This document shows positions 5,274-47,892 of a stretch of 64,000 bases of DNA, one piece after another. Position 1 is the first letter of the stretch. Each line of letters starts with the position of its first letter. Origin of the DNA: a virus; the IMG/VR virus record IMGVR_UViG_3300024348_000008; one strand, 5' to 3'. The position numbers were made by a program, and so were the translations under genes. The notes under the pieces are model-generated. The model worked only from the letters and a program-made list of their open reading frames with translations. It did not search any database and had not been told where the DNA came from.

Positions 5274-5564
5274 ATGAAAAATATAAAATTAATTAGATTA
5301 ACAAGCGGTGAAGAAATACTCGCTACAATTATAGATGATACTGATGGAGACGTCAATTTTAAAGAACCCATTGCTTTATATGCCGTAGAAGAAGGCAAAA
5401 TGGGATTTATGCAATGGATGCCTTACACGACAGTAAAAGACGGAGTAACTATTAGCAAATCAAAAATAATGTTTATGGCCGATCCTGTTGATGATGTATT
5501 AAATCAATATAAAGAAGCAACAGGTGGAATTGTTGTACCACCAAAACAAGGACTTATAGTATAA
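5274..5564 (+). CDS. Conserved T4-like hypothetical protein (Sm-like fold likely)
   Basis: KLIRLTSGEEI N-terminus typical of this family. Confidence 0.6.
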   Translation: MKNIKLIRLTSGEEILATIIDDTDGDVNFKEPIALYAVEEGKMGFMQWMPYTTVKDGVTISKSKIMFMADPVDDVLNQYKEATGGIVVPPKQGLIV

Positions 5565-5980
5565 TGAATGATAATGATTGGGTAAAAGACATCTCTAATA
5601 TGCAATACAAGTATAAAACTAAACTTTGGATGTATGAGAATAGAAATAATCCAGAAGCTTTGGCTAAATACTTAGAATTTCGTATTAATTTTTTAAAAGA
5701 AGAATTAGATGAAACAACTACAGCAGTATTGAATAATGATGCAGAAGAAATAGTAGACGGTTTAATAGATCTATGTGTAGTAGCAATTGGAACGCTTGAT
5801 GCGTTTGGAGTTGATGCTAATGAAGCATGGAATGAAGTTCTAAAAGCTAACTTAAGTAAAGAAGTTGGAATAAAGCCAGAAAGGCCAAATCCATTAAATC
5901 TTCCAGATCTTATTAAGCCAGAAGGCTGGGTAGCTCCGTCACATAAAGGTAATCATGGAAATTTCCCTAACGATATTTGA
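5564..5980 (+). CDS. MazG-like/PRA-PH family NTP pyrophosphohydrolase
   Basis: EELDE...EIVDGLIDL acidic helices, AN.SK, KPEGW. Confidence 0.8.
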   Translation: MNDNDWVKDISNMQYKYKTKLWMYENRNNPEALAKYLEFRINFLKEELDETTTAVLNNDAEEIVDGLIDLCVVAIGTLDAFGVDANEAWNEVLKANLSKEVGIKPERPNPLNLPDLIKPEGWVAPSHKGNHGNFPNDI

Positions 5981-6875
5981 TTCAATATATGATAATAAAA
6001 CGGATAAAAGAATGGACTATCCGTCATTCGATGAATTTGAAAAGGTCCTTTATAGACTTGCCGAGTCCAATAAATACCCTACTAAGTCTGAAGCACCTCT
6101 TATTAGTCCTGCTACATATTTGCCTAATACAACTCGTGCTAATAATAATGTGGTTGCTTGGGGCGGCTTTGGTATTGTTGATGTCGATGACTATATCGGC
6201 GATATAAAAGAAATTGAATCAATATATGCAAAATATAAATACATATGCTATTCAACGGCAAGCTCTAGAGTAGAGCATCCTAAATTTAGATTAGTATTTC
6301 CTCTTACTCGATGGATAGATAAAGAAGAAATTAAACATTTTTGGTTTGCTTTAAATAAAGAAATAGGCGATATTGCAGATGCGCAAACTAAAGATTTAAG
6401 TCGCATGTATTATATTCCTAATCAATATAAAGATAGTTTTAATTTTATTTTTACACATGATGGTGATATAATGGATCCATCAGAATTAATGTCTAAACAT
6501 ACGTATATAGAACCAAATAGAGGTATGTTTGCAAAATTTCCAAAAGCAATTCAAGAAGCTATTATAAAAGATAGAAAGTCAAAATTAACAAATACAAATT
6601 TTACATGGACAGGATATTCTGATTGTCCATTTGTTAATCAAAAGAAAGTAGAAGAATATAAAAGAACAACAGAAGGTGGTTGGTATTATGGAATGTACCA
6701 AATAATGGTTTCAATTGCTGGAAATGCAACATCTCGTGGTTATCCAATAACTGCAAAAGAAATCGAATATATAATTCGCGATTTAGATAGCGAAACCGGA
6801 AATTGGTATGTAAAACGACCAATAGAAAAAGAAGCAGAACGTGCAATCGAATTTGTGTTTGCAAACAATAGGTAA
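5955..6875 (+). CDS. Putative AEP-superfamily primase (PrimPol/VirE-N-like)
   Basis: DVD, YSTAS, PKFRLVFPL, D..TKDLSRMYY motifs plus helical C-terminal domain. Confidence 0.65.
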   Translation: MEISLTIFDSIYDNKTDKRMDYPSFDEFEKVLYRLAESNKYPTKSEAPLISPATYLPNTTRANNNVVAWGGFGIVDVDDYIGDIKEIESIYAKYKYICYSTASSRVEHPKFRLVFPLTRWIDKEEIKHFWFALNKEIGDIADAQTKDLSRMYYIPNQYKDSFNFIFTHDGDIMDPSELMSKHTYIEPNRGMFAKFPKAIQEAIIKDRKSKLTNTNFTWTGYSDCPFVNQKKVEEYKRTTEGGWYYGMYQIMVSIAGNATSRGYPITAKEIEYIIRDLDSETGNWYVKRPIEKEAERAIEFVFANNR

Positions 6876-7437: not shown

Positions 7438-8004
7438 ATGTATGAGTACAGAGTAAAAATAGAACGCGTTATAGACGGAGATACGGTTGATGTGGATATC
7501 GATTTAGGTTTTGGAGTTCAATTAAATGATGAAAGAGTTAGAATAATGGGAATAGATACACCTGAAAGTAGAACTTCAGATAAAGTTGAGAAAGTATTTG
7601 GTAAAGCAGCTAAAGCTGCATTAATAGACATGTTAGGAGAAACTGCAATATTAAAAACTCAAATCAATAAAAGTGGTGAAGACATGAAGGGAAAGTTTGG
7701 AAGAATCCTTGGTGACTTTGATGTTGAACATAAAGGTGTAAAGAAGACTGTAACAGCAGCTTTAATCGAAGATGGCCACGCAGTACTGTATTATGGCGGT
7801 TCTAAAGAAGATACCCAAGCAGCACATTTAGTTAATCGTAAAAGATTAATTGATGAAGGTTTGGTTAACATGTCATATGAAGAAGCTGGAATTGTATGTT
7901 TATGCGAAGATTGTCAATGCGATCCTTGTAATTGTAATACAATTGATGTTCAAATGAACGAAGCACACGATCAATTAGAAGCAGAAGAAGTTGAAAATAT
8001 TTAA
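7438..8004 (+). CDS. Staphylococcal-nuclease-like (SNase) protein with Cys-rich tail
   Basis: VIDGDT, RIMGIDTPE, KFGRIL motifs. Confidence 0.85.
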   Translation: MYEYRVKIERVIDGDTVDVDIDLGFGVQLNDERVRIMGIDTPESRTSDKVEKVFGKAAKAALIDMLGETAILKTQINKSGEDMKGKFGRILGDFDVEHKGVKKTVTAALIEDGHAVLYYGGSKEDTQAAHLVNRKRLIDEGLVNMSYEEAGIVCLCEDCQCDPCNCNTIDVQMNEAHDQLEAEEVENI

Positions 8005-8023: not shown

Positions 8024-8052
8024 TGTACAAACACCTAAAACTATGGTATAAT
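8024..8052 (+). promoter_or_regulatory. Early promoter TGTACA-N17-TATAAT heading the DNA-modification operon
   Basis: Repeated motif. Confidence 0.85.
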
Positions 8053-8081
8053 ATACCTATATTAAATAATGGAAATACATA

Positions 8082-8459
8082 ATGAGAGAATCAGTTAAAG
8101 TCTTGCAAGAATGCATAGATTTACAAACTCAAAAAGCGAATGATTATCAGAATCCAAATTCTAAAGTAAAACAAGCAGATTATTACCCAAATGGTGTAAT
8201 GACTTTGCTTGATATTAATCATGCAAAAATGCTTAGAATGCAATCAGTAGTTGCAGCAATGCAACACGATCCCGAATATAAACCAAATTTTGAATCTATA
8301 GAAGATTCTGCTAAAGATATGATTAATTATTGTAGTTTTATAGTTTCTTATTGTCGAGGTAAGATGGAAGGTCAAGATCCAAATAATGATTTTTTAAATA
8401 GACCAATGATTCCACTACTCATGACTGTGGAAGAGGTATTAAATAATGATAACGATTGA
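8082..8459 (+). CDS. Nucleotide-modification-associated domain protein (Nmad1/DUF1599-like)
   Basis: K..DY and ESIEDS..D.INY motifs; next to hydroxymethylase. Confidence 0.7.
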   Translation: MRESVKVLQECIDLQTQKANDYQNPNSKVKQADYYPNGVMTLLDINHAKMLRMQSVVAAMQHDPEYKPNFESIEDSAKDMINYCSFIVSYCRGKMEGQDPNNDFLNRPMIPLLMTVEEVLNNDND

Positions 8460-9126
8460 AGCCGTAAGAAAGTATTTTAGATACCAATTAGATAATGGAA
8501 TCTATACTACTGATAGAAATGGTGGTAAAACAATGGAAATGCTCGGCGCAGCATTTTTAGCAGATGAACCATCAATATTTGGTAAACCTAATAAAGAATA
8601 TATCGATGCAGAAATAGAATGGTATATTTCACAATCAACAAATATTACTGACATTTATCCAGATGGTGATAAAGAACCACCTAAAGCGTGGCAAATGACT
8701 GCGAATGTTCATGGTGAAGTCAATTCAAATTATGGTAGACTTATTTGGGGTGATGAATATGGTAATCAAAGAGAAATGGTTTGTCAAGAATTATTAGATA
8801 ATAGAGATTCTCGTAGAGCATCGATGATTTATACTCGACCATCTATATGGAAAGAATATAATTCCCAAGGCAAAAATGATTTTATATGTACAAATTCAGT
8901 AACATATTATATTAGAAATAATAAACTCCATTGTGTAGTTCAAATGAGATCTAATGATGTAGTATTTGGTTATAAGAATGATTATGCATGGCAAAAATGG
9001 GTTTTAGAAGATATGTGCTCGTCATTAAAAGTATTAAGATATAAAGAACTAAAGGTTGGTGATATACATTGGCAAGTACAAAATTTACATGTATATGAAC
9101 AACATTTTAATTTGGTGAAAAGATGA
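8446..9126 (+). CDS. gp42: dCMP hydroxymethyltransferase (T4 gp42-like)
   Basis: NSNYG, DSRR..MIYTRPS, DFICTN, MRSNDVVFGYKNDYAWQ, LHVY; Asp at the cytosine-specificity position. Confidence 0.88.
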   Translation: MITIEAVRKYFRYQLDNGIYTTDRNGGKTMEMLGAAFLADEPSIFGKPNKEYIDAEIEWYISQSTNITDIYPDGDKEPPKAWQMTANVHGEVNSNYGRLIWGDEYGNQREMVCQELLDNRDSRRASMIYTRPSIWKEYNSQGKNDFICTNSVTYYIRNNKLHCVVQMRSNDVVFGYKNDYAWQKWVLEDMCSSLKVLRYKELKVGDIHWQVQNLHVYEQHFNLVKR

Positions 9127-9587
9127 AAACAAGTTTTAAATGGGACGAAAGATATTTACAACTAGCTAAACAAGTGGCTACTTGGAGTAAAGATCCAAGC
9201 ACACAAGTTGGTGCTGTTGCTGTCGGTGATAAAGGTCAAGTTTTATCTCAAGGATATAATGGATTTCCACGTGGAATAAAAGATAATGAGAGATATAACG
9301 ATAAAGATTTAAAATACAGATACGTAGTACATGCAGAAATGAATTGTATATACAATGCAACATTTCATGGAACTTCTTTAAATGGAGCTACGCTTTATGT
9401 ACATGGATTACCGATGTGTAATGAATGTGCAAAAGCAATAATTCAAGTAGGAATAGTAAGAGTAGTTTCTCCATATAATGGAAATACAGATGTACCAGAA
9501 AAGTGGAAAATATCTTGTGCACATACACAACTTATATTAAAAGAAGTAAATATTCCATATCAATTCATAAAGATGAATAAACAATGA
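9123..9587 (+). CDS. cd: dCMP deaminase
   Basis: SKDPSTQVGA, GYNG, HAE, CNEC zinc motifs. Confidence 0.92.
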   Translation: MKTSFKWDERYLQLAKQVATWSKDPSTQVGAVAVGDKGQVLSQGYNGFPRGIKDNERYNDKDLKYRYVVHAEMNCIYNATFHGTSLNGATLYVHGLPMCNECAKAIIQVGIVRVVSPYNGNTDVPEKWKISCAHTQLILKEVNIPYQFIKMNKQ

Positions 9588-9874
9588 CACAAAAATTTGA
9601 CAAAAAAGAATTAGAAAATTCAAAAAGAATATTTAAATCAACAACACCAAGATATACAATAGATTGGTATATTAAATGGGTTGCTTCGGCGTTTATATTA
9701 GCCGCAATGTCAATTAGAGGTGTAGAAGGATTTGTATTTTATGATGTATCTTTATCAATAATTGGAATATTTTTATGGACTATAGTTAGTGTAATGTGGA
9801 ATGATAGAGCTTTAATTATGTTGAATGCTGTAGGTCTTGCCTTTTTACTTTCTAGCTTTATAAAATTATTATGA
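9584..9874 (+). CDS. Small multi-pass membrane protein
   Basis: Three hydrophobic helices, W.DRALI.LN. Confidence 0.6.
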   Translation: MTQKFDKKELENSKRIFKSTTPRYTIDWYIKWVASAFILAAMSIRGVEGFVFYDVSLSIIGIFLWTIVSVMWNDRALIMLNAVGLAFLLSSFIKLL

Positions 9875-11028
9875 TAAAAACTCGATATTATGATGATTTT
9901 ATAAGATACTTTTATTTAGCAAAAGATCAACAAGAAAAATGCAATGTTCCAAATTTTATGCCACATCTAAAAAGTGGTATGAACGATGATCTAATGGAAA
10001 ACGTTGAACTCTACGATGTTGTAGAACGTAAGTATGCAGGATTTTCTCAAATCATTAATGATTGCTTTTATGGTTGGACAGATCAACACCCATATTGGTC
10101 CCGTATGCAAGCAGGAAAAGCTACTTCGCAAAGAGAATTAGTAGCTAATAATTGGACAGGAAAAAAATTCGATTTAGACACATGGTTGTTTTTGTTTATA
10201 TTGCACAGAGTTACAGGAAGTGCAATTAATTACGCAACTAAACCTTCTGGTTATCATAATACAATATTATTTAAGTTTCATTTAGCAGAAAATATAGACG
10301 ACATGAAGAAGATTATAAAAGCTGAAGGTAAAATGGGTAAACCGTTTTATACATCAGTTGGTTATCAATTTCCTGCATTTCCAAAACCTACAAAAGAATA
10401 TAAAAAAGGCGGAGATTATTTTCTTTGTGAATATGTACCTAAACTTGCATACGAATTAGCAAGATTTTTAGAAACCCATGGAAGAAAAGATTTAAGAGAA
10501 ATCGGTGATTTTATGTTAAATTGGAATGTTGAAAACGGATTACGAAGATATGTATTTCAATATGCAGCAGTTGTTGCAGATATTGCCGATTGGTTTCCAG
10601 GATTTGTGAATCGTGAAAGCGCATTTTATTATGGTACAAATGCAGTAGAATGTATTTCATATCTCGGTGAAAATAATAATAAATTAAAGAAAGAAGAGTT
10701 TTTAGATGAAGTAATGATGCAAATATATGAAGATACAGGAAGTGTTCCATATAACGCAGAAGACGTATGTTGTGATTATATACGATGGGTTGAGAATTAT
10801 GTTCGACCTGGTGCAGATTATTCTCATCTCGATTATGATCAGATTTGGTCAAGTAGTTATATTAAAGATCATCCGAGAGGAAGACAAAAAGCAATGTTAG
10901 ATTTAGGATTAGTAGAAACATTTAATGGAATGACTGCTCACCCTTCGGATCTGAAAGTTTTAAATGATAATAATATTGGTATTGAAGAATATCAAGCAAT
11001 GGTGAAATCATATGGCTCTGTTTCCTAA
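9871..11028 (+). CDS. Putative amino acid:DNA transferase-like (aGPT-Pplase/HhH-like) protein 1
   Basis: C-terminal ADIADW...YYGTNAVECI...AEDVCCDY resembles the family's G..A...E..LCE pattern; operon context. Confidence 0.5.
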   Translation: MIKTRYYDDFIRYFYLAKDQQEKCNVPNFMPHLKSGMNDDLMENVELYDVVERKYAGFSQIINDCFYGWTDQHPYWSRMQAGKATSQRELVANNWTGKKFDLDTWLFLFILHRVTGSAINYATKPSGYHNTILFKFHLAENIDDMKKIIKAEGKMGKPFYTSVGYQFPAFPKPTKEYKKGGDYFLCEYVPKLAYELARFLETHGRKDLREIGDFMLNWNVENGLRRYVFQYAAVVADIADWFPGFVNRESAFYYGTNAVECISYLGENNNKLKKEEFLDEVMMQIYEDTGSVPYNAEDVCCDYIRWVENYVRPGADYSHLDYDQIWSSSYIKDHPRGRQKAMLDLGLVETFNGMTAHPSDLKVLNDNNIGIEEYQAMVKSYGSVS

Positions 11029-11977
11029 CGAACATAATATAATATATCCAAACACATCTGAGGTTCCTATGAAGAAAGGTAAACCTACAGATACGTGGAT
11101 GCAAGAATATACACTTGATGAACGAAAATCAAAGTTCTTTGAGTTTTGTGAAAAGTTTGATCAAAGAAAGGATGATCTACTTAGAGATGATTTTCAAATA
11201 TTTTCACATAGACTACATTGGGATGAACACCCATATGTAGAATTTTTACAGAATGAAGGAAGTAAAATAAAGTTAAGAAATTTCGAAAAGATTTGGTATA
11301 CAATTGTTTTCTCGTTTTCAAATGAACATTGGGGAACATTTAAGGCAGTATATACCGGTGGCCAAAGCGGTCTAAAAACGCGCTTTGAAAAACATAGACA
11401 TGCAAGATCTGATTTATTTCAAATATATTATCCAAAAGGAACAAAAGTTGCTCAATGGTTAATCGATGCACCTCTTAAATGTGCACACAAAATGCATAAA
11501 GTTTTAGACGAAAGACAAAAACCATGGACTATGATGGAACTTGCAAAAACGTTTGAAGCATATTTTAAAGAAGAAGGTTTTAGATCTCCATTGTACCCAT
11601 GTAAGAATTTCGCAAGATACATGGCTATGACATGGCCACATCAAGTTGATCCTGAATCTGTATTATTTGGAGGAACAGGTCATTTTGATGGAATGCAACA
11701 AATATTTGGTGGTAAAAACCTAAACGGTAAAGTGAAATATGATATCGTAGATGGTAAATTTATACCTCAAAATGAAGCAGCAGAATTATGGATGGAGCAA
11801 ATGCAAGAATTGGTTGAAGATCCTAGAAATCCTATGACAAAACAAAAATTATTAAATATCGAAGATAAAACATGTTTCTTTTATAAGCATATGGCCATAT
11901 CCCATGGAGCCAAAAGACCAACAAAGAGAATTCCACGAGATTGGATTTTCCCTAAGGAGTTTAAGCTTGAGTCATAA
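11012..11977 (+). CDS. Putative amino acid:DNA transferase-like protein 2
   Basis: GGTGHFDGMQQIF...NIEDKTCFFYK, same pattern as the preceding gene. Confidence 0.5.
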   Translation: MALFPNEHNIIYPNTSEVPMKKGKPTDTWMQEYTLDERKSKFFEFCEKFDQRKDDLLRDDFQIFSHRLHWDEHPYVEFLQNEGSKIKLRNFEKIWYTIVFSFSNEHWGTFKAVYTGGQSGLKTRFEKHRHARSDLFQIYYPKGTKVAQWLIDAPLKCAHKMHKVLDERQKPWTMMELAKTFEAYFKEEGFRSPLYPCKNFARYMAMTWPHQVDPESVLFGGTGHFDGMQQIFGGKNLNGKVKYDIVDGKFIPQNEAAELWMEQMQELVEDPRNPMTKQKLLNIEDKTCFFYKHMAISHGAKRPTKRIPRDWIFPKEFKLES

Positions 11978-12842
11978 TAAACACATTGAAGATGGGTTTA
12001 ATAAAGATCGTGGCATGATGTTACCAAATCAAGCTATTGAGTATTATATGGATTTAGCAAATGGTTGGGAAGATCCAAATCCACCAATCGTTGAAACAAT
12101 TCATGAAGGTATTCGAGTAGTACGAGATGATTTAATAACAGGTTCAAAACAAAGAGCTGCAGATTTATTAATGTCAACAATCAAAGAAGATACAGTTGCT
12201 TATGTACAACCAAGAACTGGTCTAGCTGGAGTTTGTATCTTGCAAGCAGCTAAAAGGTATAATAAGAAAGTACGTTTATATATGCCTTCTAGCAAGAGAA
12301 TATCACACCATCAAGCGTGTTGTATTGAACAAGGAGCTGAAATAAGCTTCCATCGCATAGCTGCAATGCCAAATCTTAACAAAATCGCTGCCGAGGACGC
12401 CAAAAAGAATGGATTTTACTTTATTCCTCTTGGTTTGAAGCACAAATTAGTCACTGCAGGCTTCGTAAAGATAGCGCGCTCCCTCGTGCACCCAACAGAA
12501 GTTTATACAGTTATATCAACGGGAGTTCTCTCTCGTGCACTCCAGATCGCTTGGCCCATGGCAAAATTTACTGCGGTTGCAGTTGCAAGAAATATGAAAG
12601 CAGGTGAGAGTGGTAGAGCAGAATTAATTAGTGCACCAGAACCATTCACAAAAAATATTAAAAAAGAAGAAATGCCACCATTTCCAAGTATAGGAACATA
12701 TGATGCAAAAGCATGGAGATATATACCTAAGAATACTGGAAGAAATATCTTATTTTGGAATGTTGGTTCTGAACCGATATTACAAGATGAAACATTATAT
12801 AACACAGTTGATAGCTACAGAGATTGGGATAAAAATTTATGA
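11967..12842 (+). CDS. PLP-dependent enzyme (fold type II)
   Basis: RDDL..GSK.R Schiff-base lysine, STGVL, YDAKAW, LFWNVG; probable TTG start after TAAGGAG (track starts at 11904). Confidence 0.8.
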   Translation: MSHNKHIEDGFNKDRGMMLPNQAIEYYMDLANGWEDPNPPIVETIHEGIRVVRDDLITGSKQRAADLLMSTIKEDTVAYVQPRTGLAGVCILQAAKRYNKKVRLYMPSSKRISHHQACCIEQGAEISFHRIAAMPNLNKIAAEDAKKNGFYFIPLGLKHKLVTAGFVKIARSLVHPTEVYTVISTGVLSRALQIAWPMAKFTAVAVARNMKAGESGRAELISAPEPFTKNIKKEEMPPFPSIGTYDAKAWRYIPKNTGRNILFWNVGSEPILQDETLYNTVDSYRDWDKNL

Positions 12843-13792
12843 TTACAGGAACATTTAATAAAATTCCTAAAAAACGTAATAGTCATGGATATGGATGGGC
12901 CAGAACTTGGGCAGAGAATTTGGATTGTGAAATTAATTATGATGGTGATCCTACAGATTTATTATATTTAGATCATGGTGTTAATTTCGGAGGATCTCTA
13001 AACTTATTTGCTGGATTTAATGAAGATTTAAAGAAAAGAATAGATAACTTTTTAAAAGCTAACGTTGTATATTCTTTAGATATTGATATGCCAGATTATG
13101 GAGCAATGTTAAAGAAAAGAAAAGACGTAAAAGATAAAGAATGGTGTGATATAATTTCAGACAAATGCGCACAAGCTATACCATTAAAATCAACAGATTT
13201 ATTAGAATTGAACTGGTTAACTATAGGCGATTCTCATACTGCAGCATATGCACGACCAAATTCAATGGTTATTAAAACAGATGGATTAACACTAAACGGA
13301 CAAATTAATAGTAATTTTGAATATATTCAATCTCATATCAAAGAATGTAACCCAAAGGGTATAACTATGGTATTTGGTAATATCGATATAAGACATCATA
13401 TATGTAGACTTAATATCGATCCAACAGAAATGCTTACCAAATGGAGAAACTTTGGATTATTGTTAGAACATAAAGGAATATCTGTTGAATATTCTACTCC
13501 ATGGCCAATTGAACATGAAGATCGAAAATTACCAAAAACTGGATATTATAAAAATCAACCATTTTGGGGAACAAGAGATGAAAGAATATCAGCATTAAAT
13601 CAATGGATTTTAATAATGGATACATTAGGAATGAAAAGAATTAAATATCCAGATGATTGGTTTTTGTTAAACGGTGAACGTTATGCTAAAGAAAAAATGG
13701 AAAATACATCGTCTGTACACCTCTCACCTGAGATGTACAGAAGAAAAAATTGGGGAAATAACCATGTACAATTGTCTCAATTTATGGTATAA
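12839..13792 (+). CDS. Protein with C-terminal SGNH/GDSL-like domain
   Basis: IGDSH, GNID.RHH, SVHLSP motifs. Confidence 0.55.
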   Translation: MITGTFNKIPKKRNSHGYGWARTWAENLDCEINYDGDPTDLLYLDHGVNFGGSLNLFAGFNEDLKKRIDNFLKANVVYSLDIDMPDYGAMLKKRKDVKDKEWCDIISDKCAQAIPLKSTDLLELNWLTIGDSHTAAYARPNSMVIKTDGLTLNGQINSNFEYIQSHIKECNPKGITMVFGNIDIRHHICRLNIDPTEMLTKWRNFGLLLEHKGISVEYSTPWPIEHEDRKLPKTGYYKNQPFWGTRDERISALNQWILIMDTLGMKRIKYPDDWFLLNGERYAKEKMENTSSVHLSPEMYRRKNWGNNHVQLSQFMV

Positions 13793-13809
13793 TATACCCT
13801 ATATAAATA
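13765..13809 (+). promoter_or_regulatory. Early promoter (13765-13793) plus late promoter TATAAATA (13802-13809) for bS21/uvsX
   Basis: Both consensus motifs in tandem. Confidence 0.8.
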
Positions 13810-13825
13810 ATAATACTGGAGAAAC

Positions 13826-14083
13826 ATGCCCTCAATAGATTTAAGACCTAGGAAAAACAAAAATCCTAAGGATAAAAGACAACCTAAACCAATGCCATTT
13901 GACGTTGCACTACGCAAATTTAAAAAAGCCGTCGAACGCGCTGGAATTATTCAAGAAGTAAAACGTAGAGAATTCTATGAAAAACCTACGGCTAAACGAA
14001 AACGTAAAAAAGCAGAAGCTGTAGCTCGAACCCGAAGGCAGCATGCTGCAAATGAATTAAAACCTAGAAACCACTGGAGGTAA
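13826..14083 (+). CDS. rpsU: Ribosomal protein bS21
   Basis: [11 protein letters not shown]...[18 protein letters not shown]. Confidence 0.95.
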
Positions 14084-16850: not shown

Positions 16851-17036
16851 ATGAAAATATTTACAAAAGCCAAAGATTGGCTAGTGGCAAGAATGCCTGA
16901 AAGAACATCGCACGATGGCGTATTACTTATTGTAATATGTGGATCAGTGATACTTTTTGGTGGTCTAGCCAAACTACTCGCGTGGGTAGGACTTGTATGG
17001 GGTATATACACCCTTGTCAGAGGAGAAGCTAAATGA
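16851..17036 (+). CDS. Small membrane protein
   Basis: GAGGAG SD; two hydrophobic helices. Confidence 0.65.
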   Translation: MKIFTKAKDWLVARMPERTSHDGVLLIVICGSVILFGGLAKLLAWVGLVWGIYTLVRGEAK

Positions 17037-17665
17037 TAAGTACTATAAGAATGGCGCTTTTAAGTGCACTACTAATATTACCTTCATTTGCAGTACAAGC
17101 TGACACTTCAGGTTCGATATCTCTTGCTTCGGATTATTTCTGGAGAGGAGTATCACAAAACGCTGGTAATCCTGCGCTACAAGCAGGATTAGCCTGGAAT
17201 CATGGTTCTGGAGTTTATGCTAGCGCATGGACAAGTCAGGTGGATTTTGGAGATGATGCGAATATTCAATATGATTTGGTGGCTGGATATAATTTAGCCG
17301 TAACAAATGATATGACAATAGGCGCAGGTATTCTACAAAGAAACTTTGATGCTGGATATGACGACGTTGAAGAATTGTTTGTTGATGCAGTATGGAAAAA
17401 TACTAATATGACATATTATGTAAATTCTGATAATAGAAAATCAACATACTTTGAATTAAGTCAAGGATTACCATTTATTACTTTTATTGATACTAAAATT
17501 GGATATGGTTCAATGAAAGAAACTGGTACAAATTCACGATTTGTATCATTAAATTTATCAAAAAACATATCTGACAGTGTAACTGTTGGTTTAATGGTTC
17601 TTGATGGGGTAAGACATGGTGATATGCTGGATTCAGCAGCAATAACATTTGCATATAACTTCTAA
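17033..17665 (+). CDS. TorF/Gcw_chp-like outer-membrane beta-barrel protein
   Basis: Signal peptide, SDYFWRGVSQ..PALQ.G, W.S.VDF, C-terminal YNF. Confidence 0.8.
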   Translation: MISTIRMALLSALLILPSFAVQADTSGSISLASDYFWRGVSQNAGNPALQAGLAWNHGSGVYASAWTSQVDFGDDANIQYDLVAGYNLAVTNDMTIGAGILQRNFDAGYDDVEELFVDAVWKNTNMTYYVNSDNRKSTYFELSQGLPFITFIDTKIGYGSMKETGTNSRFVSLNLSKNISDSVTVGLMVLDGVRHGDMLDSAAITFAYNF

Positions 17666-17699: not shown

Positions 17700-18359
17700 T
17701 TGAACGTTAAACTTATATCATATTCGCAACCAACTGAAGAATTTCAACTAGAAGGAGATTTACTTCAGTTGGTTGCTTTTTGCGCAAGAGTCTCAAATCC
17801 TAAAGGTCAGGTTAATATTAAAACCGCCGAGAAACTTGTTAAATATTTAATTAAAAATAAACACTGGTCACCACTTGAAATGGTTAGTGTTTGCTTAGAG
17901 ATCGAAACAACTCGAGATATTGCTAGACAATTATTAAGACATCGATCTTTCTCTTTTCAAGAATACTCTCAAAGATATGCCGACGTCTCAGAATTGGGAG
18001 TTGCATTTACTACGCGAGAAGCTAGAATGCAAGACACAAAAAATAGACAAAATTCAATACCAGTTAAACATGATGAATCAATTAATTATATTTGGGAATC
18101 ATATCAAGAAGTAATTATTGAACGTTGTAAGAAAGCTTATGCTTGGGCACTAGAAGCAGGTATAGCAAAAGAACAAGCTAGAGCTGTTTTACCAGAAGGT
18201 TTAACAATGAGTAAAATGTATGTTAATGGAACTTTAAGATCGTGGATCCATTACGTAGAATTAAGATCTGCACATGGAACACAACAAGAACATATGGAAA
18301 TAGCAAAAGCTGTCGGTGATGTAATCTATAAAATCTTCCCCCTAGACGACATTATTTAG
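17700..18359 (+). CDS. thyX: Flavin-dependent thymidylate synthase
   Basis: HWSPLE, RHRSFSFQEYSQRY, EQARAVLP. Confidence 0.95.
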   Translation: MNVKLISYSQPTEEFQLEGDLLQLVAFCARVSNPKGQVNIKTAEKLVKYLIKNKHWSPLEMVSVCLEIETTRDIARQLLRHRSFSFQEYSQRYADVSELGVAFTTREARMQDTKNRQNSIPVKHDESINYIWESYQEVIIERCKKAYAWALEAGIAKEQARAVLPEGLTMSKMYVNGTLRSWIHYVELRSAHGTQQEHMEIAKAVGDVIYKIFPLDDII

Positions 18360-29089: not shown

Positions 29090-29585
29090 TGGTTGTTCCT
29101 TAATGGGAACTAAGGAGATCAAAGTATCTTCTAAACCAATTGTAATTGATATAATTCAACCAACAATGCCTAGAACTATTGATTTAAAAGAACCAATGTG
29201 GCATGTGGTATCAACTGCAAAAATAGCTAATCCTTGTATTAAAGATGAAGAAGGTAAAAGACCTAAAATAGATCATCCTGAGGGTAAGCTAAGTGATAAA
29301 GGTAAAGTTATTAGAGTATGCAAGTTAGGAAAAGAAAATAACTGGCCAGAAGGTTACACATATTTAGATAAATTCTTAGATGATGTAAAGAAAAAGAACA
29401 ATGGTGATATAGTATTTTTTGCTATATCTGTTGAGGATTATGAATTAATGACTTATAATATGCAAGAATTGCGTAGATATATACGCGAAGTGCAAGAGGT
29501 CGTAATTTATTATAGAAATGTAACAATAAAGACTCCTAATGGTAATAAGCCGGGAATAGGAGCTGAAGTAGAGGTGAACAAATAA
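29028..29585 (+). CDS. Putative outer-membrane spanin lipoprotein (Rz1-like)
   Basis: Lipobox ITSGC; DYE.M..N..ELRRYI. Confidence 0.65.
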   Translation: MTVKNSIRWMIPALILTLITSGCSLMGTKEIKVSSKPIVIDIIQPTMPRTIDLKEPMWHVVSTAKIANPCIKDEEGKRPKIDHPEGKLSDKGKVIRVCKLGKENNWPEGYTYLDKFLDDVKKKNNGDIVFFAISVEDYELMTYNMQELRRYIREVQEVVIYYRNVTIKTPNGNKPGIGAEVEVNK

Positions 29586-30343
29586 TGGCATCAACAAGAA
29601 TGATAGAAGATAGAACTCAAATAGGAAGAGCATTAATAGCAGCAAAATTATCTGCACACGCATATCGTCCTGCAAAATCAGCAGTGGCAGCATGTAAAAA
29701 AATGGGATTCCCATGGGCAAGTTTAATTTCTAAAGGTGGAGCAGAAGTATTAATAGCAAAAGATCGTAATGATCTTTGGTTTGCATTTAGAGGAACAGAA
29801 CCATCAAAACTTAATGATGTAACTGCTGATCTTAAATTAATTAAAAACTCTGCAATGGCTGGTGGAAAAGTACATTCAGGATTTCAAGATGAAGTAAATG
29901 ACCTTTGGATGGATATTCTTAAAGAGCTTGAACACAATTCTAATTTAAAAATACAAAAAGATGTTTATATGTGTGGTCACTCTCTTGGAGCTGCAATGGC
30001 AACGATCGCTGCTACTAGACATCAACCAGTCGAATTATTCACGTTTGGATCTCCAAGAGTTGGAGGACCAAAATTTATAAAAAATATCAAATGTCCGCAT
30101 TTAAGATTTCAAAACAATAATGATATTGTAACAAGAATCCCACCAGCATGGTTAGGATTTAGGCATCATGGAAATATGATTTACTTTAATCGTTTTGGAG
30201 ATCGACAATTAAAACCAACCTGGAAAGATCTATTTTTCGGAATTGCTAATTCTTGGAAAAAGTTTAAATTCTTTGATGGAATAGTAGATCATGGAATGCC
30301 CAATTACGTAAAAGCTATTACTAAATTATCAAAAGTAAAATAA
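29585..30343 (+). CDS. Class 3 lipase
   Basis: AFRGT, VHSGF, GHSLG, TFGSPRVG, DIV..IPP, DH. Confidence 0.92.
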   Translation: MASTRMIEDRTQIGRALIAAKLSAHAYRPAKSAVAACKKMGFPWASLISKGGAEVLIAKDRNDLWFAFRGTEPSKLNDVTADLKLIKNSAMAGGKVHSGFQDEVNDLWMDILKELEHNSNLKIQKDVYMCGHSLGAAMATIAATRHQPVELFTFGSPRVGGPKFIKNIKCPHLRFQNNNDIVTRIPPAWLGFRHHGNMIYFNRFGDRQLKPTWKDLFFGIANSWKKFKFFDGIVDHGMPNYVKAITKLSKVK

Positions 30344-39856: not shown

Positions 39857-41278
39857 ATGTTTGATTTTACTAATTACATAACAGAAGCCAAAGAAGATGG
39901 CCAAAAACTGTCAGTTATAATCTTAGCTAATTCTTTAGATGAAGGATCAGCAGCAAAGGTTATGGCTGATGTGTGTTCATTTAATGATATATCGTGCAAT
40001 TTGATTGATATCGATAAAGCATATTTAGGTGATGCAGATATTGAATTAAGAAAGGTTGATATACGTAATATTGACGGCGAAGGTAAAAAGCTTACTTGTA
40101 ATATAGATTCCACAATTGTATTTACAAGAGCCGGAGCAATTGCAACTCAAGTTGGTCAAGCCTTAATATCTACGCTTCAAACCGTTGGATTCTTTATGGT
40201 AAATGATCTTGAATCTATGATATTATGTGATAATAAAATGGCAACTACAATTGCTATGAATAGATCAAACGTAAAAACTCCACGAACAGTTATATTAAAT
40301 AATGAAGAAAGTATAGAATATGCACACAATCAAATTGGTAGTAAATTTCCGGTTATTGTAAAAACATTAACAGGAACACAAGGTATTGGTGTTACTAAAG
40401 TCGATTCAATGAGCTCATTAATTTCTGTATGTCAATCATTATGGAAATTTGAAGCACAATTATTAATGCAAGAATTTTTAAATATAGATTATGATATTAG
40501 AACTCTTGTAGTAGACGGAAAAATACTTGGATCGACAAAACGAATTACTGAAAAAGGTTCAGAGTTTAGGTCAAATATTCATCAAGGTGCAAATACTGTA
40601 CCATATGTTTTAAAAGATAAAGAAATAAAAACAATTACTGCTGCAGCAAGGGTAAGTAGCGGTTATTATGTAGGCGTTGATCATTGTATTATCGATGGTG
40701 AAATTTATATACTTGAAATTAATGGAAGCCCCGGAATCGGATCAAATTATAATGCATATGATTTAGTTACTCAAGAATCTTTAGGTAAAAAATCAGATAA
40801 TAAGGTTTTTGATCACTTTTTAAAATATATACTAGACGAAAATAATAGAACAAAATTCATGAGAATAGAATCTGGTTATATAGAAACTATTATTTTAGAA
40901 GGTTTGGAAAATGATCCAATAAGAGCTAAGCTTGATACTGGTAATGGAACAAGCGCATCGATGTTAATGGTTGATGATTTAAAAATAAAAGATAAAACGG
41001 TGTTTTGGAAAAAGAATGGTAAGAAATTTGAATCTAAACTTTTAGGTATATCAAGAGCTAAACATATGGAAACTGTTGATGAAAGACCTATCATTGAACA
41101 TAATATAATATTTAATAATAGACCTTATTTAATACATTTAGGGCTATCACTTAAAAACACGGCATCAGAAATGTTGTGTAATAGAGATTTAATAACACTT
41201 TTTGGTGTAGCAATAAATCCAATGAAAAGGTTTGCATTAACACCATACACGGCAAGAAATGACAAAAATGATCTTTAA
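39857..41278 (+). CDS. RimK-like ATP-grasp ligase fused to a retropepsin-like (RimB-type) protease
   Basis: GTQGIGV, QEF, DIR, FRSNIHQG, GVD, LEINGSPG; C-terminal AKLDTGN. Confidence 0.88.
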   Translation: MFDFTNYITEAKEDGQKLSVIILANSLDEGSAAKVMADVCSFNDISCNLIDIDKAYLGDADIELRKVDIRNIDGEGKKLTCNIDSTIVFTRAGAIATQVGQALISTLQTVGFFMVNDLESMILCDNKMATTIAMNRSNVKTPRTVILNNEESIEYAHNQIGSKFPVIVKTLTGTQGIGVTKVDSMSSLISVCQSLWKFEAQLLMQEFLNIDYDIRTLVVDGKILGSTKRITEKGSEFRSNIHQGANTVPYVLKDKEIKTITAAARVSSGYYVGVDHCIIDGEIYILEINGSPGIGSNYNAYDLVTQESLGKKSDNKVFDHFLKYILDENNRTKFMRIESGYIETIILEGLENDPIRAKLDTGNGTSASMLMVDDLKIKDKTVFWKKNGKKFESKLLGISRAKHMETVDERPIIEHNIIFNNRPYLIHLGLSLKNTASEMLCNRDLITLFGVAINPMKRFALTPYTARNDKNDL

Positions 41279-43485: not shown

Positions 43486-43805
43486 TGGAAGAAATTGCTA
43501 TAAGTAATGATCCTACAATAGTCACTCTTATTAATGATTATGGATTTCCAATTGTTCTTGCAGTTGGAATGGGGTATTTTATATATTATGTATGGCAATT
43601 TATATCAAATGAATTAGAACCTCAAATAGAAAAGATGCATTTTCAATTAATTAGGTTAATTGATCAGGTCCGAATGCTTGATCAAGATATGATAAGATTA
43701 CAACAAAAAGTAAATGTTGTACTTGAATATAGAGAGAGACAACAATTCATCGAGGATCTCGAAGAAAAGAAAGCTCTTATGGAGAAGAAAGAAAATGAAG
43801 AATAG
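43485..43805 (+). CDS. Membrane-anchored coiled-coil protein 2 (paralog of previous)
   Basis: GFP....MGYFI TM followed by coil. Confidence 0.7.
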   Translation: MEEIAISNDPTIVTLINDYGFPIVLAVGMGYFIYYVWQFISNELEPQIEKMHFQLIRLIDQVRMLDQDMIRLQQKVNVVLEYRERQQFIEDLEEKKALMEKKENEE

Positions 43806-44337
43806 AATTTTAAATTATATTAATTGTACAATAGTAATATTGTTTTTTAGTACTGCAGTATTAGGAGACGAATTAGTACATAAATTTAAAAGTCCAAGTT
43901 TTAATGGAGTAGGTACATCATCTCATTATTTAACAATTGAAAATCAAGAGTTTTCACGAAGAGAAGCTATAGCAGATGATATAGAATCTGCATTAAAACA
44001 GGCACAACGTGATGAAGAAAATACTACTTTGGCCAAATTTATGCGTAATCTTGAAAGTAGAATATATGCACAATTGAGCAAACAATTAGTAGAAAAGCTT
44101 TTCGAAGCTTGTTCACCTGAAGCAGTAGCAGCAGGAACATGTACAGAAACCACATTTGGTAGTTTTGTATTAGAAGGAAATACAATTACATATCAAAAAA
44201 CAGTTTGTGATTCAACAATATGGGCTTGTACAACTGGAGATCAAGTTATTGTTATGACAATAGTAGCAGAAGATGGCACTGAAACAACAATTGTAATACC
44301 AATTGGCGCTGGAACTGCCGGATCTGGCGACGGTTAA
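43795..44337 (+). CDS. csgF: Curli assembly protein CsgF-like
   Basis: Signal peptide then ELVHKFKSPSFNG; F..NLESRIYAQLS; directly before csgG. Confidence 0.8.
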   Translation: MKNRILNYINCTIVILFFSTAVLGDELVHKFKSPSFNGVGTSSHYLTIENQEFSRREAIADDIESALKQAQRDEENTTLAKFMRNLESRIYAQLSKQLVEKLFEACSPEAVAAGTCTETTFGSFVLEGNTITYQKTVCDSTIWACTTGDQVIVMTIVAEDGTETTIVIPIGAGTAGSGDG

Positions 44338-45305
44338 TGAAGTACTTATTTGGTATATTATTAGTTGGATTATTATCTAGCTGTGCATCATTTGTTCCTT
44401 TTGAAGGATTAGATGCAACTGGGTGTGTGAAGGGGCTAGCATGTGTTGAAGAACCTGAAATAATCAGAATTCCTACACATGATGAATTATTTGGACTACC
44501 TCCATCAGATAAAATGCCAATTGTTGCGGTTTATAAATTTAAAGATTTAACAGGACAAAGGAAACAAAAAGGAGACGTTGCGATGTTCTCTACTGCTGTT
44601 TCTCAAGGTGCAGAAACAATGCTAATAGATGCATTAAAAACTGCAGCAGATGGTAAATGGTTTAGAGTTGTAGAAAGAGTCGGTATAGATTCATTGACTC
44701 GCGAACGACAAATAGTTCGTACAACAAGAGAACAATACGGTCAAAAAGATGACACAGGTTTAGCGCCTTTGCTTTTTGCCGGAATAATTCTTGAAGGAGG
44801 TGTCATAGGATTTGACACTAACATCGAGACAGGGGGAAGGGGTGCACGATATCTCGGAATTGGTATGTCACAAGCATACAGAAGAGATGTCGTAACCGTT
44901 TCCTTACGAGCAGTGAGTACAATGACAGGAGAAATTCTGTTAAATGTACAAGCATCAAAAACAATTCTCTCTATTGCGGATGGTTTTGATGTTTTTAAAT
45001 TCGTGGACATGTCAACCCAACTTGTAGAAATGGAAGATGGAATGACGGAAAACGAATCAGTGACACGGTCGCTTCGCTCTACAATTGAAGCAGCTGTGTT
45101 GGAATTAATATACCAAGGCCACGATAAGAAGTTTTGGGTAATAAAGGATGGGCATCGTCATCCCCACGGAGCACACGGGAGAAACGATAAACATTCAATA
45201 GTATCTGATGAAGAAACTGAAGAAATTATAACCATTCCAAATGATGGAGTTATAATAGATCCAATTCCTTTACCAGATGCATTAAAAGAGGAAATAAGGG
45301 GATGA
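44337..45305 (+). CDS. csgG: Curli secretion channel CsgG
   Basis: Lipobox LLSSC, AVY.F.D.TGQ.K, FSTAV.QGA, LTRERQI.R, D.VTV.LRAV...TGE.L. Confidence 0.93.
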   Translation: MKYLFGILLVGLLSSCASFVPFEGLDATGCVKGLACVEEPEIIRIPTHDELFGLPPSDKMPIVAVYKFKDLTGQRKQKGDVAMFSTAVSQGAETMLIDALKTAADGKWFRVVERVGIDSLTRERQIVRTTREQYGQKDDTGLAPLLFAGIILEGGVIGFDTNIETGGRGARYLGIGMSQAYRRDVVTVSLRAVSTMTGEILLNVQASKTILSIADGFDVFKFVDMSTQLVEMEDGMTENESVTRSLRSTIEAAVLELIYQGHDKKFWVIKDGHRHPHGAHGRNDKHSIVSDEETEEIITIPNDGVIIDPIPLPDALKEEIRG

Positions 45306-46036
45306 GAATAGTAAAAAATAAAACTTTAATACTAACAATGCTTTTATTGCTACCTACTACTGTGTTTGCTGGAGCTAACGATAATAAAATATTATTAGAC
45401 CAGGCAGGTGATACACTTAGATTATACATAGACCAAATTGGTTATGGTAATAAGATAGGTGGAACTATTGTCAGTGGAGATGCAGCAACTGATTGGACAT
45501 TGACTGGTAATACTGTTACTATGGATATTGACATGATCGGAAATCTTAACCAAATATTTGGACCTACATTATTTGATTCTACTGATGTTGATTTATCAAT
45601 AACAGGTAGTTCTAATATATGGGACTGGAACGTAGGTTATGGTGGAAGTGCTGATAGTTCAGTATTAGATGTAGCAATTGGTGGATCTTCAAACACTTTT
45701 GATATAGATTGGGGCTATGCGGCTTCAGCTGAAAGATTGGATTTTGATTTAGACATAACCGGTGGTTCAAACGTTTGGAATATTGATATTAATGCGGATG
45801 ATGTTACTTGGAATGTTGATGTTATAGGAAGTTCAAACAGCTTCTTGACAAATCAATTAGATGGTTCTGATCATTCATTAACGATGGAGTGGATAGGAAG
45901 TAATGGAGATATTGATATTCTTCAAAGTAGTGGAACTTGTGGTGGAAGCATCGCAAATTGTTTTGGAGTAATAAATGCAGACTTTGATTCAGAAAACGCA
46001 ATTGTTGACATTAAGCAAAAAGATACTGGCGACTAG
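45302..46036 (+). CDS. Secreted curlin-like beta-repeat protein 1
   Basis: Signal peptide; repeated DQ.G..N and I.GSSN units. Confidence 0.7.
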   Translation: MRIVKNKTLILTMLLLLPTTVFAGANDNKILLDQAGDTLRLYIDQIGYGNKIGGTIVSGDAATDWTLTGNTVTMDIDMIGNLNQIFGPTLFDSTDVDLSITGSSNIWDWNVGYGGSADSSVLDVAIGGSSNTFDIDWGYAASAERLDFDLDITGGSNVWNIDINADDVTWNVDVIGSSNSFLTNQLDGSDHSLTMEWIGSNGDIDILQSSGTCGGSIANCFGVINADFDSENAIVDIKQKDTGD

Positions 46037-47135: not shown

Positions 47136-47889
47136 TACTAATAGTATAATTATAGATCAAGTCACAGGTAGTAATAACCTAGATCTTACTATAGAACAAA
47201 TAGGATATAATAATAAGATATTCTTTTCTATAGGTGATATTGATGATACTGTTATTGATATGAAACAAGAAGGTAATAATAATGAAATAGGTTGGGCTAA
47301 TGATTCCCCAAGTTGGGGATCAGGTGCAGGTTGGGGTGGAGATATTGATTTTGATGATCATAATCTTAAGCTCTGGCAGAACTGTACTCAGACTACCTGT
47401 GCTAAAAATGATATTCAATTTCATATTTCATATGGAGATGATAATAAGGTTTGGTGGGCCCAAGGATATGAAATCTCTAGTAGAACAGATACTAGTTGGG
47501 CAAAAGATACTTATGAAGGTGGTGGGCATAAAGTAACTATTGATGTACATGGAACCAGAAATGAAATAGTTGGTCAACAAAGAAATTGCTCAAATAATAA
47601 TTGTGATGGCCACACAGCACAGATATATATTTACGGAGATGATAATTCTGTCTTCGGTAAACAAAAGGCCGATAGCTCTAAAACATTTAATTTACGTATT
47701 AATAATGATGATAATACAGTAGATTATTTACAAGATGGAAATGCATCACATGTTGCTAATATTATTTTAGATGGTGCTTATGGAACAGATTTAAATCTAA
47801 CACAACATGCAGGTTCTGCGCAGTCGTATAGTTTATCACAAAACTGTCAGACTTCTAGCGGATGTAATATTACAGTTGTACAAGAATAG
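47056..47889 (+). CDS. Secreted curlin-like beta-repeat protein 2
   Basis: Signal peptide; IEQIGYNN, KQEGNNN, YGDDN, LQDGN repeats; paired Cys. Confidence 0.7.
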   Translation: MRMKGKGMLLLLVMASLSLSSLSRADNTNSIIIDQVTGSNNLDLTIEQIGYNNKIFFSIGDIDDTVIDMKQEGNNNEIGWANDSPSWGSGAGWGGDIDFDDHNLKLWQNCTQTTCAKNDIQFHISYGDDNKVWWAQGYEISSRTDTSWAKDTYEGGGHKVTIDVHGTRNEIVGQQRNCSNNNCDGHTAQIYIYGDDNSVFGKQKADSSKTFNLRINNDDNTVDYLQDGNASHVANIILDGAYGTDLNLTQHAGSAQSYSLSQNCQTSSGCNITVVQE

Positions 47890-47892
47890 GAA

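Follow-up and report, generated by a model that had tools for sequence, protein, structure and literature searches.

What does a T4-like phage do with 5-hydroxymethylcytosine (hmC) when the place of its glucosyltransferase gene is taken by genes resembling those that build hypermodified thymidines? This question is raised by a run of eight plus-strand open reading frames (ORFs) at positions 8082-13792 of a 64,000-nucleotide stretch (the window) of IMG/VR virus record IMGVR_UViG_3300024348_000008, T4-like DNA of about 31% G+C from an uncultured aquatic phage. The eight genes lie between gp43 and uvsX, each overlapping its neighbour by 4 to 17 nt, and are predicted to encode, in order, a small protein (o1), a dCMP hydroxymethylase, a dCMP deaminase, a DUF6552 membrane protein, the transferase-like pair ORF5 and ORF6, an enzyme that depends on pyridoxal phosphate (PLP) and a two-domain protein, ORF8 (Table 1).

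Our answer, to which we give a probability of about 0.6, is that these genes form a cassette for the post-replicative hypermodification of hmC with an amino acid or amine, in which ORF8 replaces the kinase of the thymidine pathways. The phage DNA probably carries a decorated cytosine not yet described. A more specific proposal, which we make tentatively and at less than even odds, is that phages of this widespread aquatic T4-like group have, in place of cytosine, an amino-acid-derived 5-substituted cytosine made through a kinase-less activation by ORF8 and through Cys-dependent amino acid:DNA transferases (AADTs) retuned from thymine to cytosine by a change from Thr to Asp. The gene content listed by a first-pass annotation is real, all eight overlapping genes being present. 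Its idea that chemistry known from 5-hydroxymethyluracil (hmU) is applied here to cytosine survives in part: the AADT fold and motif, the family of the PLP enzyme and the Asp of the hydroxymethylase fit, but the missing kinase was left unaddressed and ORF8 was misread.

A hydroxymethylase of the dCMP type

The hydroxymethylase had been described as gp42-like with an Asp that selects dCMP, and this is borne out by its match to the T4 enzyme (PDB 1b49, E 3.5e-66), against E values of merely 1e-5 to 1e-8 with thymidylate synthases (TSs). FGFRNDYAWQ of T4 aligns with FGYKNDYAWQ, Asp179 being kept, and the catalytic Cys is conserved (FICTN on T4 FMCTN). In the related loci, by which we mean 89 IMG/VR viral loci, all 51 hydroxymethylases have Asn-Asp at the Asp179 site. 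It is well supported by these alignments that the protein is a true T4 gp42 enzyme of the dCMP type, predicted to make 5-hydroxymethyl-dCMP (hm-dCMP).

The calls of a dCMP deaminase, of a membrane protein (DUF6552) and of ThyX as the source of ordinary dTMP also stand (Table 1). By analogy with the cd gene of T4, the deaminase is predicted to supply dUMP to ThyX. A MazG-like pyrophosphohydrolase encoded outside the cassette is a candidate dCTPase that would clear dCTP; its gene adjoins that of the hydroxymethylase in loci L093-L099. The DUF6552 protein is possibly a SemiSWEET-like solute channel, its match to NCBIfam SemiSWEET_2 (0.003) lying under the cut-off.

The deaminase allows another scenario, in which it turns hm-dCMP into hm-dUMP, hmU replaces part of the thymine, and the same enzymes modify hmU as a thymidine pathway with an unusual route. 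Linkage was counted in the 31 IMG/VR loci in which ORF5 is flanked by 4.5 kb or more on either side, a gene being scored when it lay within 6.5 kb. The deaminase gene, which overlaps that of the hydroxymethylase by 4 nt in the window, accompanies it in 21 of these loci, and all characterised AADT and gp52-type enzymes act on thymidine derivatives (PMC8989533). However, T4 too has gene 42 together with a dCMP deaminase, the deaminase is not near the cassette in the remaining 10 loci, and dTMP is supplied by ThyX. Moreover, Asp-type TS homologues, PRA-PH/MazG proteins and dCMP deaminases co-occur on the cytosine-modified contigs found by MetaGPA (PMC8670742). We consider modification of hmU improbable, and two further features described below, one in ORF5 and ORF6 and one in ORF8, add to this judgement.

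Fold of the two transferase-like proteins

ORF5 and ORF6 had been called transferase-like paralogues by eye. BLASTP between them is insignificant; hhalign of ORF5 against a diverse ORF6 alignment gives an E value of 6e-5 over 211 columns, with the ESxxxxGT and (N)xEDxxC motifs in register, and confirms at the profile level that they are distant paralogues.

The AlphaFold2 (AF2) model of ORF6 has a predicted local distance difference test score (pLDDT) of 94.2. Compared by VIA-align with 48,161 chains, its top match is PaMx11 gp46, or PUGT (8z2m_A; Z 10.2, root-mean-square deviation 4.3, 222 residues), followed by helix-hairpin-helix (HhH) glycosylases and DUF2419 at Z 7.0 or below. In BFVD, its best match is an orthologue named in UniProt 'Amino acid:DNA transferase domain-containing' (E 4e-29), and the next ones are '5-hmdU DNA kinase helical domain' proteins of PhiW-14, phiRSL1 and SP10 and 'Pplase1' proteins. 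The ORF5 model is less confident (pLDDT 79.7). Its best BFVD match is also an 'Amino acid:DNA transferase domain-containing protein' (61% identity, E 3e-33), and with VIA-align 8z2m_A, at Z 7.7, is tied with HhH glycosylases. Models of both proteins match viral models named for AADT and for HMUDK_hel, and a protein language-model atlas places both beside clusters carrying HMUDK_hel and ADDT. The models confirm an AADT/HhH-glycosylase fold for the two proteins, more weakly for ORF5, and the by-eye assignment is upheld to this extent. The outcome is divided by method, as AF2 with VIA-align puts PUGT first, while profile comparison with AADTs is insignificant and Foldseek against PDB is weak: with the ORF6 model it gave nothing at E up to 0.001, PUGT and HhH glycosylases appearing only at E 1-3.

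Family searches recognise neither protein. ORF5 and ORF6 have no match in Pfam (E up to 0.1), PHROGs or NCBIfam; 31 ORF6-family members compared with Pfam at E up to 10 gave no AADT, aGPT-Pplase or HMUDK_hel match, and distant relatives of the family give sub-threshold HMUDK_hel/ADDT matches only. Profiles of ORF5, ORF6 and ORF8 found nothing meaningful among PDB sequences, and in 50,697 genomes of cultured phages tblastn matched neither ORF5 nor ORF6. In metagenomes, a search with ORF5 at a cut-off of E 0.001 yields 942 homologues, the longest of their contigs measuring about 170 kb; ORF6 has hundreds, on contigs reaching about 193 kb. The family is confirmed in at least 428 IMG/VR stretches.

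The catalytic motif and the choice of base

PUGT is a crystallised glycinyltransferase acting on 5-phosphomethyldeoxyuridine, in which Cys247 attacks C6 of the base, Glu243 and Thr244 hold a metal that contacts thymine O4, and Trp146 and Lys150 bind glycine (PMC11472151). The corresponding motifs are QEVETVLCKWKSH in M6 gp51, NIEDKTCFFYKH in ORF6 and NAEDVCCDYIRW in ORF5. The Glu-x3-Cys spacing is identical in all three and equals that of Glu243 and Cys247 in PUGT, the sites being equated by the motif and its position in the C-terminal helix rather than by residue-level superposition. Glu-Asp-x-x-Cys is present in 86 of 86 ORF5 homologues (E297/C301) and 56 of 56 ORF6 homologues (E284/C288). 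The Lys of YPCKN is invariant in the ORF6 family, and ORF5 has Ala at the same place.

Eight diverse thymidine AADTs (M6, PaMx11, RHph_I65, Pam3, PhiW-14 gp109, P26218, MossRose and SH-Ab 15599) have an invariant Glu-Thr-x-x-Cys. The Thr after the catalytic Glu is absent from ORF5 and ORF6, which have Asp instead. The residue concerned faces position 4 of the base, and its substitution resembles the Asn to Asp change of TS-family enzymes; we infer an adaptation to cytosine. As the residue helps to hold the metal on thymine O4 in the thymidine enzymes, this departure is the first of the two features that argue against a pathway on hmU. Some distant relatives of ORF6 (P0278-P0295) have Glu-Ala or Glu-Ser in place of Glu-Asp, and no relatives of these were found in IMG/VR.

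The PLP enzyme

The open reading frame of the PLP enzyme probably begins at TTG 11967, behind AAGGAG at 11955-11960; translated from there it has 291 residues, matching the length of its homologues. The earlier call of a PLP enzyme is strengthened by a match to phrog_7093 (6e-34), of which M6 gp52 is the archetype, scoring 2e-159 on the model. M6 gp52 is a characterised decarboxylase of C-alpha-glycinylthymidine in DNA (PMC8989533). Lys82 of the window's enzyme aligns on K36 of gp52 and is Lys in all 67 homologues, and the two proteins share a C-terminal PFP..YD.KAW..WN[VI]G block. A Pfam PALP match (6e-5) lies under the curated cut-off, and phmmer against PDB gave nothing. Judged by its sequence, the enzyme is a member of the M6 gp52 DNA-decarboxylase family.

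The closest kin in cultured phages are in Erythrobacter phage vB_EliS_R6L (gp1; L083) and in phages ZS04 and Mae-JY30, with 33-35% identity. They sit inside genes annotated as DNA modification methylases, which suggests a methyltransferase-PLP fusion in these three phages.

ORF8, a candidate replacement for the kinase

Residues 1-97 of ORF8 align with residues 1-114 of T4 beta-glucosyltransferase (BGT) in hhalign against a profile of seven BGTs (probability 90.4%, E 1.4e-6, 105 columns), with GGSLNLFGG on NSSINFFGG and SLDID on YLFTD. PF09198 is weakly matched by 7 of 27 ORF8-family members, the Pfam gathering score not being reached. The C-terminal halves have no similarity in profile comparison (probability below 1%), and the reading of ORF8 as a full GT-B enzyme was dropped, these halves being unrelated. 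The C-terminal half of the BGT alignment contains the invariant Arg191, Arg195, Arg269 and Glu272, which we take to bind UDP-glucose. The statement that no glycosyltransferase is recognisable in this DNA therefore needs amending: ORF8 carries the N-terminal domain of BGT, while the UDP-glucose-binding half is indeed missing. Possession of a domain from an hmC-acting enzyme is the second feature that argues against modification of hmU.

The invariant residues of the C-terminal part of ORF8 (Table 1) would suit an enzyme of the Ser/His kind in which several side chains bind phosphate or carboxylate. Compared with the SGNH blocks I (GDS), III (GxND) and V (DxxH), GDSH is invariant, the Asn in G(N/S)ID is not, and SVH stands where DxxH is expected. 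The label 'SGNH-like' was drawn from motifs alone and is not sustained by the Lipase_GDSL/SGNH model, which matches none of 27 ORF8-family members at E up to 1.

To our knowledge, the 5-hydroxymethyldeoxyuridine DNA kinase (5-HMUDK) is obligatory in every known thymidine pathway. A Walker A protein was sought in vain in the window's cassette and in the cassette ORFs left unassigned in loci L002-L081, and the window ORFs scanned gave no match to a kinase family; the candidate of a P-loop kinase hidden in the cassette was dropped, as there is no Walker A motif. A P-loop 5-hmdU DNA kinase that would act before the transferases was not seen in the window or in the 89 related loci. The question arises as to what activates the hydroxymethyl group. 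We propose, from sequence comparison, that ORF8 activates or derivatises hmC within DNA, and it is the likeliest replacement for 5-HMUDK. The T4 map runs 42, b-gt, segA, uvsX, 40, 41, and the cassette fills the same slot.

ORF8 homologues occur in 43 cultured phages, mainly the Aeromonas T4-likes 44RR2.8t, 31 and 25. The 795-residue ORF233c of phage 31 is ORF8-like in its N-terminal third, and the call of its C-terminus rests on a weak HMUDK_hel match (E 0.0036), ORF233c giving no significant hhalign score with the profiles of ORF5 and ORF6. The 637-residue 5-HMUDK of SP10, named 5-hmdU DNA kinase in UniProt and matched in BFVD through its helical fold, implies a fusion of kinase and helical domain. 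The parallel between the ORF233c and SP10 fusions is our main reason for proposing ORF8 as a stand-in for the kinase. Directly 5' of the ORF8-like fusion lies a sodium:solute symporter gene (PF00474, 7e-53), the two genes, ORF234c and ORF233c of phage 31, forming L082:7399-11379. This symporter and the DUF6552 protein of the window suggest an import of substrate for DNA modification.

Recurrence of the cassette

The frequencies with which the other genes are found near ORF5 are given in Table 1. Gene orders are many, with the PLP enzyme and ORF8 genes swapped in some loci; loci L093-L099, for instance, have the order (o1)-MazG-hydroxymethylase-deaminase-ORF8-ORF6-PLP enzyme-ORF5. The constant pair of the cassette is ORF5 and ORF8. 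Since ORF6 is dispensable, being missing from 12 of the 31 loci, the idea that the two transferases act as a heterodimer is weakened in its obligate form.

Additional genes are found in some of these cassettes. In L015 (1365-1778) and 12 other loci, a 137-residue protein resembling uracil-DNA glycosylase (GQCPS ... HPSPRN) is encoded immediately 5' of ORF5, replacing DUF6552. A TagD-like cytidylyltransferase (LHAGH) is present in L007 (7601-8014) and L057 (6899-7315), an NAD-dependent sugar epimerase/dehydratase, the sugar-nucleotide epimerase of the set, in L026 (5583-6341), and a glycine-cleavage H protein (GcvH) in L056 (3655-4002). Such variable extras may hint at the donor or nucleophile used in those phages.

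Some of these loci raise the possibility that ORF8 is sufficient, as a BGT descendant whose addition of a sugar, an acyl or another group to hmC would complete the modification. The other genes would then not form one linear pathway, the HhH-fold and PLP proteins serving glycosylase-like repair or exclusion, anti-defence or donor metabolism. This would accommodate the BGT-like N-terminal domain at the b-gt locus, the loci L031, L033 and L046, which hold ORF5 and ORF8 and neither the PLP enzyme nor ORF6, and the epimerase (L026) and cytidylyltransferase-like genes (L007, L057), and it may draw on the fold score of ORF5, which does not separate AADTs from glycosylases. It has to explain, on the other hand, the loss from ORF8 of the half of BGT that binds the nucleotide sugar, the company of ORF5 and ORF8 in 30 of 31 loci, and the fusion of an ORF5-like to an ORF8-like domain in Aeromonas phage 31. 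The Glu-x3-Cys motif, present in all 86 ORF5 and all 56 ORF6 homologues, also speaks against it, as we know of no HhH glycosylase with a Cys nucleophile, and the family of the PLP enzyme is known from DNA hypermodification only. We regard modification by ORF8 alone as unlikely.

Comparison with known systems

With the thymidine pathways of ViI, M6, PaMx11, PhiW-14, SP10 and SH-Ab 15599, the window shares a TS-family hydroxymethylase that feeds a hydroxymethylpyrimidine into DNA, the Glu-x3-Cys motif, and a PLP enzyme that falls in one phrog with M6 gp52. As in ViI, the HhH-fold transferase-like proteins form a paralogous pair, and the cassette is without a radical S-adenosylmethionine enzyme, which suggests that a side chain is attached and then decarboxylated. 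In contrast, the hydroxymethylases of the thymidine pathways are dUMP-specific and that of the window is of the dCMP type (Asp); ORF8 is found instead of the P-loop kinase; and ORF5 and ORF6 escape the Pfam models and carry Glu-Asp in place of the Glu-Thr of the thymidine AADTs. 5-HMUDK and a glycosylase-like gene were the genes common to all four thymidine-hypermodifying phages compared in an earlier study (PMC5889632).

The glucosylation system of T4 has an orthologous gene 42, a pyrophosphatase and deaminase that shape the pools, and a b-gt gene that occupies the same map slot, between gene 42 and uvsX-40-41, and shares its N-terminal domain with ORF8. The window differs from T4 in that ORF8 is without the UDP-glucose-binding domain, there is no alpha-gt, and AADT-like and PLP enzymes are added. 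The hmC carbamoyltransferase cassettes found by MetaGPA (PMC8670742) resemble the window in decorating hmC with something other than a sugar and in their context of Asp-type TS, MazG and deaminase. Unlike in the window, the decorating enzyme there is a TobZ-type carbamoyltransferase, working in one step and giving a known product.

Like the window, the Aeromonas phages 44RR2.8t, 31 and 25 are T4-like, have genes 42 and 56 and possess an ORF8 homologue (25-33% identity). Phages 44RR, 31 and 25 were described as having these two genes and no glucosyltransferase (Petrov et al. 2010, PMC2993671). They differ from the window in that the ORF8 homologue is fused to an HMUDK_hel-like helical domain, these not being separate genes, and tblastn found no homologues of ORF5, ORF6 or the PLP enzyme in the three phages. 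Literature searches retrieved no report on their DNA modification and, in full text, no paper linking aGPT-Pplase/AADT enzymes to a dCMP hydroxymethylase.

Proposed pathway

The modification of hmC that we favour could proceed in four steps. First, the gp42-type enzyme would make hm-dCMP, a step well supported by homology, and the phage polymerase would put hmC into DNA; the MazG-like pyrophosphatase and the dCMP deaminase would shape the pools as in T4, with ThyX keeping dTMP flowing. Second, the BGT-type N-terminal domain of ORF8 would bind DNA and flip out hmC, and its Ser/His/Arg-rich C-terminal domain would turn the hydroxymethyl, through acylation or some other group transfer, into a group that leaves more readily, taking the role that the P-loop kinase 5-HMUDK has on hmU. 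Third, ORF5, together with ORF6 where present, would act as an AADT: the conserved Cys would attack C6 of the pyrimidine, loss of the leaving group would produce an exocyclic methylene, to which an amino acid or amine would add, the Asp beside the catalytic Glu reading the N4 amino group of cytosine rather than O4 of thymine. Fourth, the gp52/gp226-type PLP enzyme would remove the carboxyl group of the attached amino acid, leaving an amine. Since this decarboxylation needs a free alpha-amino group, as in ViI, attachment is probably via the side chain, for example a serine oxygen. The DUF6552 protein is a possible importer of the substrate. For the final base, 5-(aminoalkoxy)methyl- or 5-(aminoalkyl)aminomethyl-cytosine would be the simplest guess. 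This mechanism is at its weakest in the role it gives to ORF8 and in the identity of the nucleophile and the end product.

The same group could instead be built on free hm-dCMP or hm-dCTP before replication and incorporated ready-made. The MetaGPA carbamoyltransferase accepts 5hmdCTP as well as DNA (PMC8670742), and the operon looks early and sits in a module of replication and nucleotide metabolism. However, the fold of ORF5 and ORF6 is that of DNA glycosylases and comes nearest to an enzyme whose crystals were obtained with double-stranded DNA, BGT, the source of the domain homologous to ORF8, acts on DNA, and gp52 and gp226 act on DNA polymers, so that we hold a pre-replicative route to be very unlikely.

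Several observations weigh against a post-replicative AADT-type pathway on hmC. Neither ORF5 nor ORF6 is matched by the model (PF18724 ADDT) of the AADT or clade-2 aGPT-Pplase family, to which M6 gp51, ViI gp247 and PaMx11 gp46 belong, and hhalign with their profiles is not significant against M6 gp51 as a single sequence or against the eight thymidine AADTs (E 0.03-0.09); with no Pfam model reached, what ties the two to AADTs is their predicted folds and one short motif. The Z score of the ORF5 fold is at a level that VIA-align calls common for helical proteins, and the reading of the Thr to Asp change is an analogy. In the ORF8 family, the position of the catalytic Asp100 of BGT is not invariant, and the failure of the Lipase_GDSL/SGNH model counts on the same side. 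Finally, the hydroxymethylase was not seen within 6.5 kb of ORF5 in 6 of the 31 loci.

Gene layout and neighbouring genes

Table 1. Positions, supporting matches and linkage of the features discussed (last column: loci, of 31, in which the gene is near ORF5)
Feature	Position	Strand	Characteristics	Loci
MazG-like nucleotide pyrophosphohydrolase, outside cassette	5564-5980	+	PF01503, 2e-11; phrog_671, phrog_12019	25
Promoter-like TGTACA-17-TATAAT, extended -10 (TG)	8024-8052	+	In 77-nt gap 5' of operon, the sole intergenic gap	
o1, 125 aa	8082-8459	+	phrog_1485, 1.4e-11; phrog_18404, 5e-11	
Predicted dCMP hydroxymethylase, T4 gp42 orthologue, 226 aa	8446-9126	+	PDB 1b49, E 3.5e-66, residues 2-224; PF00303, 4.7e-14	25
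dCMP deaminase	9123-9587	+	PF00383, 7.7e-22; phrog_174, 2e-44	21
DUF6552 small membrane protein	9584-9874	+	Three hydrophobic segments; PF20189, 1.3e-17	4
ORF5, 385 aa, putative aGPT-Pplase/AADT superfamily	9871-11028	+	Invariant NAEDVCCD: Glu297, Asp298, Cys301	
ORF6, 321 aa, AADT-like, distant ORF5 paralogue	11012-11977	+	NIEDKTC: Glu284, Asp285, Cys288; YPCKN: Lys198	19
PLP-dependent enzyme, M6 gp52/ViI gp226 family	11967-12842 (ORF listed from 11904)	+	phrog_7093, 6e-34, residues 64-288; Schiff-base Lys82	27
ORF8, two-domain protein	12839-13792	+	N-terminal ~100 aa BGT-like; C-terminal GDSH, G(N/S)IDIRHH, RKLPKTG, MEKPxSVH invariant	30
Second TGTACA-17-TG-TATAAT site	13765-13793	+	Inside ORF8 end, 5' of bS21 gene	
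ThyX flavin-dependent thymidylate synthase	17700-18359	+	PF02511, 1.9e-41	

The operon had been described as driven by one early promoter. A promoter-like site does fill the sole gap, but sites of its type are at chance frequency in the region (36 observed, 38.5 in shuffled sequence), so the case for a promoter at 8024-8052 is only positional. The gene downstream of the second site, with which it spans 13765-14083, is a phage bS21 gene (PF01165, 6.6e-18).

The label 'Nmad1-like' for o1 is unconfirmed, as o1 has no Pfam match and matches the C-terminal part of phrog_18404, its PHROG matches being limited to this phrog and phrog_1485. It aligns to positions 168-250 of phrog_18404, and the window's MazG-like protein to positions 47-139 of the same phrog, by which o1 appears as a protein that occurs fused to a MazG-like pyrophosphatase in other phages. 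A candidate explanation of o1 as a MazG paralogue was dropped, BLASTP giving no similarity to the MazG-like protein. The gene is conserved just 5' of the hydroxymethylase in 19 of the 31 loci.

Family scans of the window ORFs place gp44, RegA, Hsp20, the gp43 polymerase and the MazG-like pyrophosphatase upstream of the cassette. The MazG-like gene is followed by a 306-aa ORF without a Pfam match (5955-6875), a cell-wall hydrolase and an SNase-like nuclease with a Cys-rich tail (7438-8004), which lies directly 5' of the cassette. Downstream come bS21, UvsX, a small ORF, the gp41 helicase and ThyX, and, further on, NrdAB, RNase H, gp59, gp32 and baseplate genes. A Gcw_chp family protein is encoded at 17033-17665 and a class-3 lipase at 29585-30343. 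Remote from the cassette, a 473-aa RimK-like ATP-grasp ligase (39857-41278; PF08443, 3.7e-28) could add an amino acid to a protein or another acceptor. A block of higher G+C (43714-50038; 0.34-0.37) contains CsgF-like and CsgG-like curli secretion genes, a FecR-domain protein and a CHASE2-adenylate/guanylate cyclase; such a curli secretion and cyclase block is unusual cargo for a T4-like phage.

Implications

All the characterised hypermodifications of the AADT/PLP type that we found are on thymine, and the only decorations of hmC known to us are sugars and a carbamoyl group. The base proposed here would therefore be a new class of natural DNA base and, if the pathway is as we propose, ORF8 would represent a new way of activating a hydroxymethyl group on DNA. 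The enzymes would be hmC-specific and act on duplex DNA, which makes them possible tools for hmC mapping and DNA labelling, and the Thr/Asp switch beside the catalytic Glu predicts how the transferases distinguish cytosine from thymine. Given the size of the family, a considerable fraction of the DNA of aquatic T4-like phages may contain such a base, which may be handled differently by restriction, CRISPR and sequencing chemistries.

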